Below are positions 1 through 9,521 of a stretch of DNA of 15,307 bases, piece after piece. The stretch lies in the NCBI GenBank assembly GCA_048939245.1, contig JBHLPR010000054.1, positions 1 through 15,307 on the forward strand. Direction: 5' to 3'. The position numbers and the translations under genes were made by a program. The first letter of the stretch is position 1. The number at the start of each line of letters is the position of its first letter. This DNA comes from Promethearchaeota archaeon. GTDB lineage: Archaea > Asgardarchaeota > Hermodarchaeia > Hermodarchaeales > Hermodarchaeaceae. Below the pieces are notes generated by a model. That model was not told the DNA's origin. It saw only the letters and a program-made list of their open reading frames with translations, and did no database searches.

Positions 1-354
1 TGTCCCCTTGAGTAGCTCACGAGGATCACCTTCCCGTGACATGGTGTTGACAAATTCCTCGTTTTTCACCATTCCTGATCCAATTGCGAGGAAGAGGAGT
101 ACAAAGAGCAGAGGAACAACTGCGGCAAAGTAACGGCTGAAATAGTCCCCTGAAAAGACTAGCCAACTGAGTAAAAATATTGGCGCAGCAAAGATGTGGA
201 TCACTTTTCTTGATACGTAGATGGGAATGAGTTCACGTTTGCGTAAAATGTCATTAATTCGTATCAAGATGAGCAAGACAACAAAGGATATTATTAAAGC
301 CAAGATGTCCCAGGCCCAGTTTGGAATACCGAATCCGAGAAGCAAGTTTACCAT
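1..354 (-). CDS. Phytol/farnesol (isoprenoid alcohol) kinase-like membrane protein, dolichol kinase/CTP-transferase superfamily; runs off the window edge
   Basis: Translated by hand; not in the ORF track. ATG at 354 is open to base 1: MVNLLLGFGIPNWAWDILALIISFVVLLILIRINDILRKRELIPIYVSRKVIHIFAAPIFLLSWLVFSGDYFSRYFAAVVPLLFVLLFLAIGSGMVKNEEFVNTMSREGDPRELLKGT. SRKxIHI and MSRxGDPRELLxG match the VTE5/FOLK-type kinases. Several hydrophobic helices; AGGTGA just upstream. Confidence 0.85.
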   Translation of the reverse strand, partial: MVNLLLGFGIPNWAWDILALIISFVVLLILIRINDILRKRELIPIYVSRKVIHIFAAPIFLLSWLVFSGDYFSRYFAAVVPLLFVLLFLAIGSGMVKNEEFVNTMSREGDPRELLKGT

Positions 355-4636: not shown

Positions 4637-6352
4637 CTAATCTTTCCGCAGATACCACACAGCAAAAAGCACTACAGTTACAATGATAATTACGCCGATG
4701 ATAATGGTAATAATTAGCGTAGGGGACATACTCCCGATCTGTACGATAAAGACTCCTTCTGATTCCGAAGGTAGACGAGTGTATCGTCCAGCTGTATCAT
4801 TTGTTCCAAAGTAGTACGATAAAATAGTTCCTGTGATTATTGAGCCAGGAATAGTAGCTTGATACATATTCTCCGTTACTTCACTCATAGGCAAATACCG
4901 AAAGACACCCTGATCAATTTGATAAAATAAGCTAACTGCAGATAGATGATCATCATCAGTAGCTTTAACGATAATTGTCACAGGCTCAAAAAAGGTAGGT
5001 GGGTCAATAGAAATTAGAGAAAGTTCTGGAGTAGCCATATCCTGTTTTGCCAAATAGATATCTTGATCTGTTACTGAGCGCCCATCTGTCCAGACAATAA
5101 AGAGCCTTCCTGAAGGACCTGAGCGAAGGGTGAAATAGTCTCCAGGTCGTGTAAAACTCAGAGGGAATCCTTCGGTAGTAATCCTCACATCCTGGGAGAA
5201 GGTTGTACCACCATCATCGGAGTAGCTGTAATAGATATCCCACTCATTATTCCGAGCATCTAACCAGGCGACATGAATATCATCATCTTCATCGATGTGC
5301 ATCTCGACCATCCGTTGCATATTCGTGGCATCATCGTTGACTTGAACTGGGTCCGACCAACTTATACCAGCATCAATTGACTTGATAACATATACATCCT
5401 TATCGGCGGGTGACCCAGCAGCATAACAAATGTATATGTGATGCTGACTATCCGTTGCGCACACTGTGATGATGGCAATCTCCCCCGACCCAGGAGGGTT
5501 AACTTGTTGAGGAGAGGTCCAAGTAGTCCCATAATTGGTTGATTTCATGAAGAAAATTGTATCAATAGGACCGTCAGGATTTGAATCCCAAACCGTTGAA
5601 GCAAACAACGTCCCATTTGGTGTACAGGTCAGATAAGGAATTCCACCATGTGTGTCCCATGATCCCAGAATTTGAGTAGGCTGGAATGACGCACCACCAT
5701 TTGATGAACGTGTAAACACAAGATTGGCATAATTTTGAGTAACGAAGTGATCCCACATCATGTAGATGTTTCCATCTGCATCAACGCAGGCCGTCTCTTT
5801 ATCATCAAGATATCCGCTAGTATCACTGGCTTGAGTCGGTGCATTCCAGGATAGACCTCCATCAACAGTCTTAGCAACACCCATTCCTTCCTCAGGTCCA
5901 TTGTATTCTAAAAACGCAAAATAAGCATTATCATTAGTATCGGAAATTAACCATGGATCCGACTGATATTCATTGATGCCGAGAGTTTCTATAAGGATAT
6001 TAGGACTAAAGGTTTGGCCTTCATCATCTGAATAGCAGAAACCTACGCGACGACCAGGGCCGTTATAAGTGTCTGCTTCTTTCCACCCGATTAATAATCG
6101 ATTTGTATTTAGGATAGTGAGTGTTGGTTCAACTTGTTCAGGGTATGGTGAGGATCCATCCGTTACGCGGTAGTTATAACCAAAACGTATATCTGATGCC
6201 TGAATTGGGGCATGAGAAACAGCAATGTCTTTATTTTGAACCTCTAGTCTAAGTCGTTGTGCATGGGTTGGTAAAATCGTCATCGGAGCAAATATCATTT
6301 GGGTACTAAGGAGCAGAATGAATATACACAGAAGTAACCGATTGTTTTTCAT
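4637..6352 (-). CDS. Membrane-anchored BNR/Asp-box beta-propeller protein (sialidase-like fold) with an Ig-like stalk
   Basis: N-terminal signal peptide MKNNRLLLCIFILLLS; six Asp-boxes (SDDEGQTF, TVDGGLSW, SSNGGASF, STNYGTTW, SIDAGISW, SDDGGTTF); beta-rich domain VTIIVKATDD...YQATIP...YYF; C-terminal TM helix followed by RKD. Start moved from GTG 6364 to ATG 6352 because GGTGA sits 9 nt upstream of it. Confidence 0.85.
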   Translation of the reverse strand: MKNNRLLLCIFILLLSTQMIFAPMTILPTHAQRLRLEVQNKDIAVSHAPIQASDIRFGYNYRVTDGSSPYPEQVEPTLTILNTNRLLIGWKEADTYNGPGRRVGFCYSDDEGQTFSPNILIETLGINEYQSDPWLISDTNDNAYFAFLEYNGPEEGMGVAKTVDGGLSWNAPTQASDTSGYLDDKETACVDADGNIYMMWDHFVTQNYANLVFTRSSNGGASFQPTQILGSWDTHGGIPYLTCTPNGTLFASTVWDSNPDGPIDTIFFMKSTNYGTTWTSPQQVNPPGSGEIAIITVCATDSQHHIYICYAAGSPADKDVYVIKSIDAGISWSDPVQVNDDATNMQRMVEMHIDEDDDIHVAWLDARNNEWDIYYSYSDDGGTTFSQDVRITTEGFPLSFTRPGDYFTLRSGPSGRLFIVWTDGRSVTDQDIYLAKQDMATPELSLISIDPPTFFEPVTIIVKATDDDHLSAVSLFYQIDQGVFRYLPMSEVTENMYQATIPGSIITGTILSYYFGTNDTAGRYTRLPSESEGVFIVQIGSMSPTLIITIIIGVIIIVTVVLFAVWYLRKD

Positions 6353-6364
6353 ACTAGTGTTCAC

Positions 6365-6728
6365 CGATTCGGAAATGCTTCTTCAATCTTCTTAAAAAGC
6401 GATGCTCTTACGGCATGAGATTTCGTATTATCGAATTATAGGTAAATGGAAACCACGCAAAAACAAATCCTAGAATAATTAAATTCTAAATTAATTCTTT
6501 TTACTAATTATTTCTACTCAACGGATTGCATCGTTATATTCACACTGAGAGGAATAGCATAACGAAATAGTATGTCGAAATTTCTTAGCTAGGCGTAAAA
6601 AGAAAAAAAAGAAAAAACCTCTGTTAAATTCTATGAAAACAAACCCTTATTCAGGAAAATGCCAAATAAATTTAAATTAAAGGACAATTCATCCTAACGC
6701 GGGATATCTGCTATTTGAAGGGCGAGCA
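6365..6728. promoter_or_regulatory. AT-rich divergent promoter region between the two surface-protein genes
   Basis: Minus-strand TTTTTAAG at about 6391-6398; plus-strand AAATAAA-TTTAAA at about 6664-6676; an A-tract at 6597-6617; an imperfect palindrome TAGAAT-AATTAA-ATTCTA at 6471-6488. Confidence 0.5.
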
Positions 6729-9521
6729 TTGAAAAAAAGAATCCTTATTCCAATCATTATAATCTTCCTAATTACCATCTCCAGTCTTCAAACTAATTTT
6801 CCAACCGATGCCTACGGGATTCCCTTGGAACTATTGCCAGCGATTAATACTGGTAATGGAACACCCCTTGATGTCTATGAATTTATTACAAATCAAAGTC
6901 AAACCTTCTATAATGTTCAAAACAATACAATTTTCCCATACCTTACTGACTGGTATCCCGAAGCATATCGCGGATACCATTTACATGCAAATCTTCTGAA
7001 TATTCGAAAAACGGTAAATCCTGTTCCAAACTGGAATTTCGAACAATACCCTGAACCAGGAAATAATTGGACTCTTACAACAGACGGTGGTGGACTCGTA
7101 AGTTCAATTGGTAATACTTCAGGAGGAAATCCAGGTTCCTGTCTAGATGTGGAATTAGCTTATGACAGACTACTAGGGTCACGAACAGCGGAAATAGAAA
7201 ATAGCTTTAATTATACCTCATCGATTTCTCCAGATTCGCTCACCCTCTATTTTGATGTTCGATATTCTTCTGATATCACGAACACCAGTTGGCTAATTAT
7301 TGAAGTAAGTATTGAAACCGGCTTTGGCTCCACAGTGGCTAGTTGGGTAACTACAACAGATGCTTTTGCACCAGAGGTCTGGGTGACACAAACTCTAGCT
7401 TCAGTCCCAGTGAATGGTTCTTTAACACTCAAAATTGTGATAACTAAGCAAACAGGTTCAAATCTCGAGGTTAATGGACACATCTATTTTGATAATTTTA
7501 ATTACCAAATTGGATCTTATTCAGCTCCAAGCGAAGTTGGGCTTTCATTAAACGATACAACTGTCGTAGATACTTTTGCTAATTATGGCGAAGTGGATAT
7601 CTACGCTGACGTTTCTTTAAGGGAAAAAATCAACTTTGCTAACGCATGGAATACAACCCAGTGGTTTGTTTTCACCTCAACGGAAACCATCTCTTTTGAT
7701 TTTGAATATGCCATGGCGATGAAAGCTGTAAATTCTGGGGCTGCTCAAACTAGCTATTCAATCGAAGAAAATACAGATTCAGAATGGACTGTGAATTACA
7801 CAGTTCCAAGTGAACGCCCCGCTCCTGGGTTCTCGAATTATCAATATGGTATTTTTTTACCTCAAGGATGGCAGCTAATTTATGTTCGAGATTCTCAAGG
7901 ATTTATGTTACTTGGAGATATTGATTTCACATGGAATTCGTCTGACCGCTTTTTCCTCCTAAGAGGAGGCATAGCTGAAGAAGGGGATATGTTCGCAATT
8001 TATTCACAAAGTACTAATTATGTCACAGGGGTTGTCATACAAAAAAGCGTTTCACCAAACGGACCTTGGGTAACTGTAACCTCGGATGATTTCCTTGTAT
8101 CTGGAGATTATGTCCAAGTGATTGGGACTTTGGAGCCTATTAATTCAACAGGAAATAGTGGAACCATATTGATCATTCTTCCCAATGGTACTGTTTGGAA
8201 CACTGATTCTGCTCCGACTTTTGATTCGAATACCAATACCTTAACGAGTACGATTTGGCAGATTACTTCAATCGACGAGGAATTAGCGGGAAGAAAGCTT
8301 ATTGCGAAAATTAGTTACTCCTCAGGAACTCAAAGTGGCCTTAGAACTCAGACTTTTAAGATGCTAAAAGAGGCCGAGATTACTATATACGCACCTCTTC
8401 CCAGTAGTGAGATGGGCTGGTTTGATTTCCCCATTATTGTGTATATCCAAGATTCCGTAACTGAGGATTATATTAGTGGTGCTGAAGTTCTTTTACGGTA
8501 TAATAACCCCCAAAATCAAAACCAATCAGTAGTCATGACACTTAATGATGAAGGCGCATATACTACCGTCTTTTCATCTGAAGGATTCGAACCTGAATCG
8601 CTTCTCACTTTTGAGGTGGAATTCATTAAATTCGGATATGTGAATGCCACAATTGCGGAAGGAACAGCTGCACAATTTAATGTCCGTGTAAGAACAGGAT
8701 TATCTCCAGAAATTGGAATCATAAATCAAATAATCATATATGGTGTTGTATTCGCAATAGTTATTGTTTCTGCGTGGCTATTGTATAGTCAGGGGTATCG
8801 TAAGCGTTATCTAATTCCTAAACGAAGAACTCATGAGAAAACACTTCAAGAAGTTATAGCAATTTATAACGATGTAACCAATTTATCTCGTGTTCTAGTT
8901 CTTCACAGGGGTTCGGGTATAGCGATTTTCGACTTCATGGGAGAAAAGGGCCTGGATGGTTCACTCATCGGAGGTTTTCTTCAAGCCTTACAAGCCTTTT
9001 CCTTTGATGTAAATGGAGAAAACCGTAGAGGAGAATCAGCTCGACTCTCTGAAATAACATATGAAGGATTTAGAGTAATAATAAATGATGGAGAACTTGT
9101 AAGGACTGCCCTGGTGTATCGAGGGACCCCTAGTGGGACCCTTCTTGAAAAACTAAGAGTATTTACAGAAAAATTCGAAGAGCGATATCAACATCAATTA
9201 ATATCTCATAAAAGTGAGGCAAGTCTGTTCAAGCAATCAGATGATCTCTTAGAAGAGATATTTCATATTTCTTTACTCTTTCCTCATAAAGTCGAACCAA
9301 AAACCGTTGATATTCGATTATCGAACCTGGAAAGTCGATTACATTTTGTCGCTCTAGAAATAGCCAAAAAGCAAGAATCCATCCAGCTTTCTGAAATTAT
9401 TACAAAGTACTTAGAAACTGTTCAGGGTAAGCCGGTTGAATTACTGAATGGAATTTTCCAACTCCGAGAGAAGAATTTGCTCATACCCATTGAACCCATT
9501 AGTTCCGCTAAATCCAAATAA
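6729..9521 (+). CDS. Large single-pass membrane protein: CBM/jelly-roll and Ig-like ectodomain, TM helix, cytoplasmic longin-like domain and putative winged helix
   Basis: Signal peptide MKKRILIPIIIIFLITIS; about 16 N-x-S/T sequons before the TM; PNWNFE...IYFDNF motif; TM IIIYGVVFAIVIVSAWLLY (8730-8786) followed by a basic stretch. The tail VLVLHRGSGIAIF...LIGGFLQALQAFS...LSEITYEGFRVIINDGELVRTALV...LRVFTEKFEERY...LLEEIF fits the longin beta-beta-alpha-beta-beta-beta-alpha-alpha order. Confidence 0.78.
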   Translation: MKKRILIPIIIIFLITISSLQTNFPTDAYGIPLELLPAINTGNGTPLDVYEFITNQSQTFYNVQNNTIFPYLTDWYPEAYRGYHLHANLLNIRKTVNPVPNWNFEQYPEPGNNWTLTTDGGGLVSSIGNTSGGNPGSCLDVELAYDRLLGSRTAEIENSFNYTSSISPDSLTLYFDVRYSSDITNTSWLIIEVSIETGFGSTVASWVTTTDAFAPEVWVTQTLASVPVNGSLTLKIVITKQTGSNLEVNGHIYFDNFNYQIGSYSAPSEVGLSLNDTTVVDTFANYGEVDIYADVSLREKINFANAWNTTQWFVFTSTETISFDFEYAMAMKAVNSGAAQTSYSIEENTDSEWTVNYTVPSERPAPGFSNYQYGIFLPQGWQLIYVRDSQGFMLLGDIDFTWNSSDRFFLLRGGIAEEGDMFAIYSQSTNYVTGVVIQKSVSPNGPWVTVTSDDFLVSGDYVQVIGTLEPINSTGNSGTILIILPNGTVWNTDSAPTFDSNTNTLTSTIWQITSIDEELAGRKLIAKISYSSGTQSGLRTQTFKMLKEAEITIYAPLPSSEMGWFDFPIIVYIQDSVTEDYISGAEVLLRYNNPQNQNQSVVMTLNDEGAYTTVFSSEGFEPESLLTFEVEFIKFGYVNATIAEGTAAQFNVRVRTGLSPEIGIINQIIIYGVVFAIVIVSAWLLYSQGYRKRYLIPKRRTHEKTLQEVIAIYNDVTNLSRVLVLHRGSGIAIFDFMGEKGLDGSLIGGFLQALQAFSFDVNGENRRGESARLSEITYEGFRVIINDGELVRTALVYRGTPSGTLLEKLRVFTEKFEERYQHQLISHKSEASLFKQSDDLLEEIFHISLLFPHKVEPKTVDIRLSNLESRLHFVALEIAKKQESIQLSEIITKYLETVQGKPVELLNGIFQLREKNLLIPIEPISSAKSK

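Follow-up and report, generated by a model that had tools for sequence, protein, structure and literature searches.

In the 15,307-nucleotide stretch of DNA analysed here (the window; contig JBHLPR010000054.1 of assembly GCA_048939245.1, from a Promethearchaeota archaeon of the Hermodarchaeales) a single open reading frame (ORF) at 6729-9521 on the forward strand encodes a 930-amino acid (aa) protein with a large ectodomain, one transmembrane (TM) helix and a 244-aa C-terminal tail. It was found that the juxtamembrane helix, the longin-type domain and the winged helix of this tail make up a cassette which is shared by hundreds of otherwise unrelated Asgard surface proteins. By analogy with known proteins of the longin fold class we tentatively regard the target as a type-I surface protein whose inner cassette might be a membrane-proximal docking platform for a Ras-superfamily GTPase, or for the regulator of such a GTPase.

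The spread of the cassette was followed by scanning the tail against 1.84 billion cluster representatives, and it matched 732 clusters at E≤1e-3, 304 of which also passed E≤1e-10. Among the 150 relatives listed, the match usually spanned tail residues ~4-236 of proteins between 250 and 2833 aa in length, and wherever a crude hydropathy scan detected a TM helix in them it was situated ~20 aa upstream of the match; some cassette proteins continued for 200-400 aa beyond the cassette. The ectodomains of these relatives were unrelated to that of the target and some of them carried Ig-like Pfam domains (Big_1, MG4, Big_3_5), while a Pfam search with 30 tail relatives and 32 family members returned Ig-like matches in other ectodomains and scattered noise only. 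In a single-sequence survey, which covered genomes of the phylum, 156 of the 201 sampled genomes had a tail match, with 11 per genome at most. Relatives with a named source were all Asgard archaea (Promethearchaeota, Hermodarchaeia, Hodarchaeota, Odinarchaeota) except one labelled 'bacterium SM23_57', a label suspected to come from a mislabelled bin. An earlier, purely sequence-based reading of the gene (the original prediction) had called for a survey of Asgard genomes for the same architecture, and the cassette behind a single TM helix was recovered in these clusters and genomes. The same reading had described the protein as a one-component receptor that passes an extracellular signal to a small GTPase: its type-I architecture with a longin and a winged helix inside has stood, and the protein is not a one-off, the tail being a cassette carried by hundreds of ectodomains. 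The genome of the target itself (2.52 Mb, 88% complete) contains 13 ORFs with this longin type, namely the target, a second TM-tethered copy of the cassette on contig C64 (29% identical to the target), a soluble protein on contig C115 and ten more.

The tail was modelled with AlphaFold2 from an alignment of 30 diverse tail relatives (A2), and the model had a predicted local distance difference test (pLDDT) value of 87.9 and a predicted template modelling score of 0.82. In this model a helix at tail residues 2-32, continuous with the TM helix, is followed at 33-164 by a beta-beta-alpha-beta-beta-beta-alpha unit with short helices (strands 33-40, 46-49, 87-92, 95-101 and 105-111, helices 58-76 and 117-133, short helices to 164), and at 167-234 by three helices with one strand before and one after them. 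The five-stranded antiparallel sheet of beta-beta-alpha-beta-beta-beta order, with C-terminal helices packed on it, corresponds to the longin fold. All the 41 Foldseek matches listed for the model were of longin/roadblock type, including AP2 sigma (9e-4), COPZ1, LAMTOR, TRAPP (3cue), MglB, Asgard roadblocks, Mon1-Ccz1 and Sec22b. Additionally, an exhaustive VIA-align fold search over 48,161 chains yielded 52 chains at Z≥8, and the best 50 of these 52 consisted of 49 longin or roadblock chains and one Odin profilin. At the top, both with Z 11.5, were chain 8yqg_B, which is the longin domain of a Roadblock-Longin protein from Lokiarchaeota (129 residues aligned at an rmsd of 3.5), and the MK-D1 roadblock 9jue_D (105 aligned), and VAMP7, TRAPP, CPLANE, Mon1-Ccz1 and BLOC-3 came next at Z 10.8-11.2. 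A longin-type region had been proposed at 8880-9263, and the model together with the fold search places the core at 8883-9278; the check by AlphaFold and Foldseek that had been suggested for the cytoplasmic region gave the longin-type fold.

The extent of the matches bears on the distinction between longin and roadblock. Longin matches span tail residues 27-164, roadblock matches start at about the same residue (~27) and end at about 136-140, and the helices beyond residue 136 are matched by longins only in the VIA-align comparison. Longins are described as carrying an extra C-terminal helix where roadblocks have an N-terminal one (PMC10933270), and the reach of the longin matches to residue 164 agrees with this distinction; we call the domain longin-type on this basis. 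Sequence comparison placed the tail in none of the curated families: neither the whole protein nor the tail had any Pfam match, those at E≤10 included, so that Longin, Clat_adaptor_s, Sybindin, Sedlin_N, Fuz_longin_1 and similar families, and also Robl_LC7, were without a tail match at this threshold. Paralogues in the same genome gave sub-threshold Pfam matches only, to Clat_adaptor_s (0.053 and 5.5e-4) and to Fuz_longin_1 (0.002 and 3.5e-5). PDB sequences were searched with the tail itself and with three profiles, made from the tail (A2), the full-length protein (A1) and the winged helix (A3), and the matches were at chance level (PDZ domains, fumarase, integrin alpha-V, JukB); the sole match below E 0.01 was alpha-2-macroglobulin (E 0.004), which aligned to an Ig-like/MG region in the ectodomains of the relatives included in A2. 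According to the modelled structure, the alpha/beta part of the tail is a longin-type domain at the level of the fold, outside every curated sequence family.

The last part of the cassette was modelled alone from a winged-helix-only alignment (A3) built from the DNA of 28 relatives. The model shows a three-helix core with a short strand between the first and the second helix (H1, H2) and a wing after the third (H3), as is typical of a winged helix (strand 5-7, helix 18-31, a single-residue strand at 37, helices 39-49 and 54-66, strand 70-72). The VIA-align top 50 for the last 78 aa were nearly all winged helices (Z 5.9-7.8, 55-78 of the 78 residues aligned), among them MecI (7.6), Zur (7.4), ORC/Cdc6 (6.6-7.4), Fur, SarX, RPA32C, Rio2, MCM-C, cullin WHB, Stn1 and kleisin. 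Foldseek with the winged helix alone gave no match at E≤0.001, with E values of ~1; since in addition all the Z-scores are below 8, the assignment is to the fold class and not to a specific family. The domain had been predicted at about 9321-9490, and the domain model and the fold search locate it at 9285-9488.

The frame of the target gene is unbroken and opens with a TTG codon, a start which is supported by the orthologue P0004, whose alignment begins at residue 1 of the 930-aa protein. Two hydrophobic segments were detected by the hydropathy scan, aa 1-25 (after MKKR) and aa 659-686, and the second is followed by YRKRYLIPKRRTHEK. On account of this flank and the positive-inside rule the 244-aa tail is assigned to the cytoplasm. 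Hydropathy and charge distribution together (an N-terminal signal, one TM helix, a positive C-terminal flank) describe a type-I single-pass protein, and this layout is repeated in most of the 150 listed relatives. The signal sequence, the single TM helix and a cytoplasmic part of about 245 aa, all of which had been noticed in the original prediction, were found again, and the YRKRYLIPKRRTHEK flank puts the tail inside the cell, not outside. The coordinates of the features are collected in Table 1.

Table 1. Features of the target gene and of its neighbours in the window.
Feature	Position	Strand	Basis
N-terminal signal sequence (MKKR, 13-residue hydrophobic core, then SSLQTNFPTDAYG)	6729..6812	+	hydropathy peak aa 1-25; P0004 alignment
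Ectodomain, ~630 aa, acidic, sequon-rich	6813..8708	+	composition, sequon count, orthologue alignments
Single transmembrane helix, aa ~661-686	8709..8786	+	hydropathy maximum 2.56; K/R-rich stretch behind
Basic juxtamembrane helix, aa 688-718	8790..8882	+	AlphaFold2 helix at tail residues 2-32, pLDDT 86-95; net charge of aa 687-718 +4
Longin domain (predicted fold), aa 719-850, family motif D..LI(S/G)GFL.A...F	8883..9278	+	AlphaFold2 model, Foldseek, VIA-align
Winged-helix domain (predicted fold; H1, short strand, H2, H3, wing strand), aa 853-920	9285..9488	+	AlphaFold2 model of the domain alone, pLDDT 90.1; VIA-align
Ras-family small GTPase, 194 aa	430..1014	-	Pfam Ras 4.4e-48; only GTPase gene in the window
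BNR/Asp-box beta-propeller surface protein	4637..6364	-	Pfam BNR_2 1.6e-10; divergently transcribed from the target

The ectodomain has a net charge of -43 and an isoelectric point (pI) of 4.1, and its composition (S+T+N+G 35%, F+Y+W 13%) fits a beta-rich fold. It holds 16 NxS/T sequons against 9.2 +/- 2.7 in shuffled sequences, a number reached by 23 of 2000 shuffles, and there is one in the tail; from this excess of sequons we infer that the ectodomain is probably glycosylated. It is also modular: in relatives the segment corresponding to aa ~448-547 is absent, or extra segments are present. The ESM Atlas provided weak Ig-like leads only (Big_1, MG2, CarboxypepD_reg; score 0.83, TM-score ~0.3), no Pfam match was obtained for the ectodomain even at E≤10, the PDB sequence search likewise returned nothing for it, and the match of the full-length profile A1 to the calf-2/TM region of integrin alpha-V (E 0.2) was at chance level. 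A CBM4/9-like reading of the segment NWNFEQ...IYFDNF was considered, and no tool confirmed it.

Full-length orthologues occur throughout the genus and beyond it at 45-81% identity. The gene order around the target is kept genus-wide (GTPase, saccharopine dehydrogenase, FGGY kinase, SnoaL, BNR, target, MFS, nitroreductase, OYE), and in these loci the flanking proteins are 70-85% identical and the target 46-61%. Within the target, the mean identity to orthologues is 64% in the longin domain, 63% in the winged helix, 45-59% in segments of the ectodomain and 37% in the TM helix. A fast-evolving modular outside combined with a constrained inside is the pattern expected of a surface protein with conserved cytoplasmic contacts.

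Small GTPases are candidates for these contacts; the longin fold class is that of GTPase platforms. In the docking model that we tentatively favour, two tails would pair, by analogy with solved longin and roadblock dimers, and under the surface protein this pair would serve as a holder for a Ras-superfamily GTPase or for one of its soluble regulators of longin/roadblock type, with the winged helix acting as a second protein-binding module. Docking of this kind would couple binding by the ectodomain (to a partner cell, a polymer or a surface) to the intracellular machinery. That the tail docks a small GTPase is, from the sequence context and the modelled structures, a possibility which we would put somewhat below an even chance. 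It is unlikely that the target carries out true transmembrane signalling. A further-reaching proposal, that the cassette would be an Asgard wiring of the cell surface to GTPase switches, in which every one of the many surface proteins supplies a membrane-tethered longin platform of its own and pairing induced by a ligand or by contact recruits or activates a Rab/Arf/Rag-like GTPase under the contact site, appears likewise rather improbable to us.

Comparison with known systems shows where the analogy holds. The soluble longin/roadblock proteins of Asgard archaea (8yqg; the MK-D1 and Thor roadblocks 9jue, 7yh1 and 7f8m; PMC10933270) belong to the same phylum and have the same fold as the tail, and they form dimers like those of the TRAPP and Ragulator platforms; however, they occur as soluble proteins or as fusions with GTPase or roadblock domains, whereas the longin of the target is tethered by a TM helix and followed by a winged helix, and the identity is 8-13%. 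The TRAPP core (3cue chain A, 7b6d chain C), Mon1-Ccz1 (9lol, 5ldd), CPLANE Fuzzy-Inturned (7q3d) and BLOC-3 (8zwc) share the longin topology and the C-terminal helices with the tail (Z 10.8-10.9 over 119-128 residues), and a paralogue close to Fuz_longin_1 in the genome of the target is operonic with a Ras-family GTPase; these eukaryotic guanine nucleotide exchange factor platforms are soluble multi-subunit complexes recruited peripherally, unlike the TM-tethered tail, which resembles them in its predicted fold. In longin SNAREs (VAMP7 4afi and 2vx8; Sec22b 3egd and 1ifq; Ykt6 6j74) a cytoplasmic longin is likewise found on a single-pass protein, with VAMP7 and Sec22 at Z 10.8-11.2, but these are tail-anchored, with an N-terminal longin, a SNARE motif and almost no extracellular part, whereas the target runs from ectodomain through TM helix and longin to winged helix, with no SNARE heptad region. 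MglB/Roadblock-LC7 proteins (3t1r, 6hjm, 3kye) and LAMTOR, dimeric GTPase-binding platforms which occur in prokaryotes as well, have the alpha/beta core in common with the tail (Z 9.5-10.6), but roadblock matches cover only part of it, its N-terminal helix does not appear to be used in the roadblock fashion and the extra C-terminal helices fit a longin. Metazoan adhesion receptors (integrin alpha, cadherins) follow a shared logic, in which a modular, glycosylated ectodomain of large size is joined through one TM helix to a short and conserved adaptor-binding tail; they have no homology to the target and the fold of their tails is unrelated.

The genomic neighbourhood of the cassette genes supplies part of the case for a GTPase link. 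In 20-kb windows around 39 tail genes of other genomes, and in 40 control windows placed on these same contigs, our own hidden Markov model (HMM) detected a Ras-like gene (E<1e-8) in 19 of the 39 versus 7 of the 40, counted without phylogenetic correction; after collapsing to similarity groups, a GTPase lay within ≤3 kb in 7 of 20, against 3 of 40 control windows. On contig C53 of the target's own genome (L106:50-1419, minus strand) the gene of a 273-aa longin protein shares 4 bp with the start of a Ras-family gene (184 aa, 4.5e-50) on the same strand, to which it is translationally coupled. The longin protein matches Fuz_longin_1 at 3.5e-5 (24.5 bits, the cut-off being 26.1), its first longin domain is of Mon1/Fuzzy/HPS1 type, and the two-gene operon is a candidate archaeal longin-Rab pair. 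In genome G194 (L062:11205-15565) a GTPase gene precedes a 747-aa tail-bearing gene by 190 bp on the same strand, and the locus includes two tandem proteins of 298 and 299 aa in which a longin of this type (1.7e-17, 8.8e-12) is joined to a GTPase-like P-loop domain of degenerate sequence, which has the motif GEEGVGKS, carries NFQD instead of NKxD, lacks DxxG and matches Roc at 1.3e-3; no ORF of the target's own genome fuses this longin type to a GTPase domain. In genome G182 (L038), two tail-bearing genes have Ras-family genes close by, at distances of 290 bp and 54 bp. Furthermore, the complex of two tails (residues 26-240) with the GTPase of the window was predicted, only the GTPase chain being scored, in a job which differs from those used to calibrate the tool. 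It gave an interface score (ipSAE) of 0.36 against 0.00 for the best control, with the verdict 'weak support'; the runs agreed in at least 75% of contacts and the pLDDT of the partner was at least 76.

A number of observations weigh against a GTPase partner. The GTPase gene of the window is 5.7 kb from the target on the opposite strand, behind four unrelated genes of metabolic or surface type (saccharopine dehydrogenase, FGGY kinase, SnoaL and BNR), and their arrangement is kept only as a part of the genus-wide synteny. Since the genome has 33 Ras-family genes, such a gene would by our estimate be expected by chance within +/-6 kb at ~18% of positions, and of the seven own-genome longin-type genes found first, two are within 6 kb of a Ras-family gene where ~1.3 would be expected by chance. 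The modest enrichment in other genomes is confounded by ancestry, because 13 of the 19 positive windows come from two orthologous synteny groups of one family, which keep unrelated neighbours (P-type ATPase, ATP-grasp, RsmB, DUF2070) as well; when shared loci are counted once, roughly 5 of 17 independent units have a GTPase, a marginal figure from a rough count. The longin of the C53 operon matches the tail-longin HMM at only 2.8e-4 and is a distant paralogue. Concerning the predicted complex, 58 of 80 solved complexes attain the mark, as do 2 of 110 mismatched pairs, but at values of 0.60 or below it is attained by only 7 of the 80 and by both of the passing mismatches. On the calibration of the tool 0.36 falls in a band where most passes are false unless the pairing was already probable; the pass may also reflect memory, because longin/roadblock-GTPase complexes have already been solved. 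Longin domains also act without GTPases, for instance in SNAREs and in the sigma and mu subunits of adaptors. In MK-D1, finally, the genes of GTPases do not as a rule share operons with those of roadblock or longin proteins (PMC10933270). Taken as a family, the cassette genes have a context which points toward small GTPases, but this is suggestive only and ties no particular GTPase to the target gene.

In an alternative reading the target would be a structural envelope or adhesion protein and its tail a GTPase-independent module of anchoring, clustering or sorting. Such tails would bind each other, an actin-type cytoskeleton, components of the endosomal sorting complex required for transport (ESCRT) or soluble longin/winged-helix proteins, and would organise, from the inside, a surface which has no S-layer. 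We consider this alternative, too, as possible, if doubtful. It accords with the fast-evolving, modular and sequon-rich ectodomain, which is like that of surface adhesins, with the presence of the same tail on very different ectodomains (250-2800 aa), some of them with Ig-like domains, and with the 20 of 39 tail-gene windows that have no GTPase nearby. The cultured Lokiarchaeum, which lacks an ordered S-layer, has many complex surface proteins (PMC9834061), soluble longin and winged-helix proteins are available as possible partners in the target's own genome, and the nearest analogy would be the tail of an integrin or cadherin, or the longin domain that a longin SNARE has in the cytoplasm. Repeated TPR and MIT matches in C-terminal extensions of relatives point in the same direction, but all are below threshold. 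Against this alternative, the best-populated known role of the fold is that of a GTPase platform, and both the C53 operon and the L062 fusions point to GTPases.

It is considerably less probable that the protein is a membrane-tethered transcription regulator, with the ectodomain as sensor and the winged helix binding DNA either at the membrane, as in ToxR or CadC, or after proteolytic release. Many of the structural matches of the winged helix are indeed DNA-binding regulators (MecI, Zur, Fur and SarX, as listed above), and paralogues have weak, sub-threshold matches to HTH_47 and TrmB, but protein-binding winged helices (ORC/Cdc6, RPA32C, cullin WHB, Stn1, kleisin) are matched equally well and none of the Z-scores attains 8. 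The domain is mildly disfavoured as a DNA binder because its net charge is 0 (pI 6.95) and its H3 is hydrophobic/neutral (PVELLNGIFQLRE), with a median net charge of 0 in the family; across the family the charge ranges from -6 to +7, with no conserved basic surface evident. In addition, every one of the many paralogues per genome would need a DNA target. An annotation artefact or a decaying gene from which no functional protein is made, to which the TTG start might point, is scarcely credible in view of the intact 930-codon frame, the full-length orthologues at 45-81% identity, the domain-wise conservation, the confidently modelled folds and the conserved synteny.

Longin/roadblock proteins of Asgard archaea and their fusions with GTPases are documented, with 130 Asgard clusters of orthologous genes (asCOGs) in the Roadblock/LC7 superfamily and many lineage-specific architectures (PMC10933270; bioRxiv 10.1101/2020.10.19.343400). 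In a full-text literature search, which did not include the supplementary asCOG tables, no paper was found on a longin and winged-helix cassette behind the TM helix of large surface proteins, and the word 'transmembrane' is absent from the main text of both of these studies. GTPase-regulator pairs were noted to be hard to predict in the MK-D1 study, as operons are rare (PMC10933270). Small GTPases by the dozen and more than 100 longin/roadblock families are encoded in Asgard genomes, and as to how these act in cells with no known endomembranes, a longin which a surface protein anchors at the cytoplasmic side of the plasma membrane would be a concrete, testable place where GTPase platforms could work. 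The cassette proteins may be part of the 'complex surface proteins' seen on the cultured Lokiarchaeum without an ordered S-layer (PMC9834061). If the wiring of surface to GTPases were true, it would represent a precursor, in prokaryotes, of GTPase signalling coupled to receptors and of membrane identity based on longins, operating at the plasma membrane when endomembranes did not yet exist; if the tail were a GTPase-independent anchor, the cassette would nevertheless mark out an extensive family of Asgard surface proteins which is undescribed in the literature searched. With its 244 aa the soluble tail is small and easily expressed, its model is confident, and its partners can be sought directly.

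Longin-like and winged-helix domains were also observed together in soluble proteins of the target's own genome, on contigs C115 (L003:1495-2085, plus strand, 197 aa), C86 (L014:6080-6760, plus strand, 227 aa) and C79 (L107:1692-2957, minus strand, 422 aa), the last of which has weak Robl_LC7, HTH_47 and TrmB matches besides. The pairing of longin and winged helix seems to be a recurrent one in Asgard archaea, beyond the membrane-tethered form. Contig C28 contains a giant open frame of 4498 aa (30789-44285, minus strand), and ~2 kb away from it is the gene of a 696-aa protein whose N-terminal domain is a longin of this type.

One Asgard family has 200-400 aa after the winged helix (L045:7074-7664, minus strand; L044:12659-13255, plus strand; L058:12626-13864, plus strand; L042; L037), and in these extensions TPR_2 (0.001-0.39) and MIT (0.03-0.24) matches recur below threshold. 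These matches may hint at contacts of ESCRT-III type. The extensions were also considered as GTPase domains and rejected as such, the sub-threshold TPR and MIT matches being the only ones obtained. In several genera an Arf-like GTPase gene overlaps a 185-aa gene whose product has a weak C-terminal winged-helix match (HTH_27 0.007; L049:4903-6064, plus strand; L034, L036, L039, L050, L052 and L063), and the pair is kept convergent with a tail-bearing gene of ~1110 aa at a distance of 1.5-3.7 kb. These 185-aa proteins were rejected as relatives of the tail (E 2-9).

The remaining observations concern the window. Its GTPase displays the motifs GDYAVGKT, WDMSGQ, NKAD and SAK, has an N-terminal extension of 29 residues and ends in LLKSGK; having no C-terminal cysteine, it is without a prenylation motif. 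In the divergent BNR neighbour three Asp-boxes were seen between a signal peptide and a TM anchor at the C-terminus, behind which only 6 residues follow as a tail, and on account of the signal peptide, the anchor and the short tail it is considered another type-I surface protein. Its gene adjoins the target in 6 of 10 loci of the genus, switching from the upstream-divergent to the downstream-convergent side. The spacer between the two genes (6365-6728, 364 bp) is AT-rich and includes a TATA-like run, AAATTTAAATTAAAGG, ~35-50 bp upstream of the TTG start, which would be compatible with an archaeal promoter and a short leader. At the edge of the window a partial ORF (1-354, minus strand) shows a match to the MASE5 membrane sensor (8.8e-4, below the cut-off) and is kept beside the GTPase gene within the genus.

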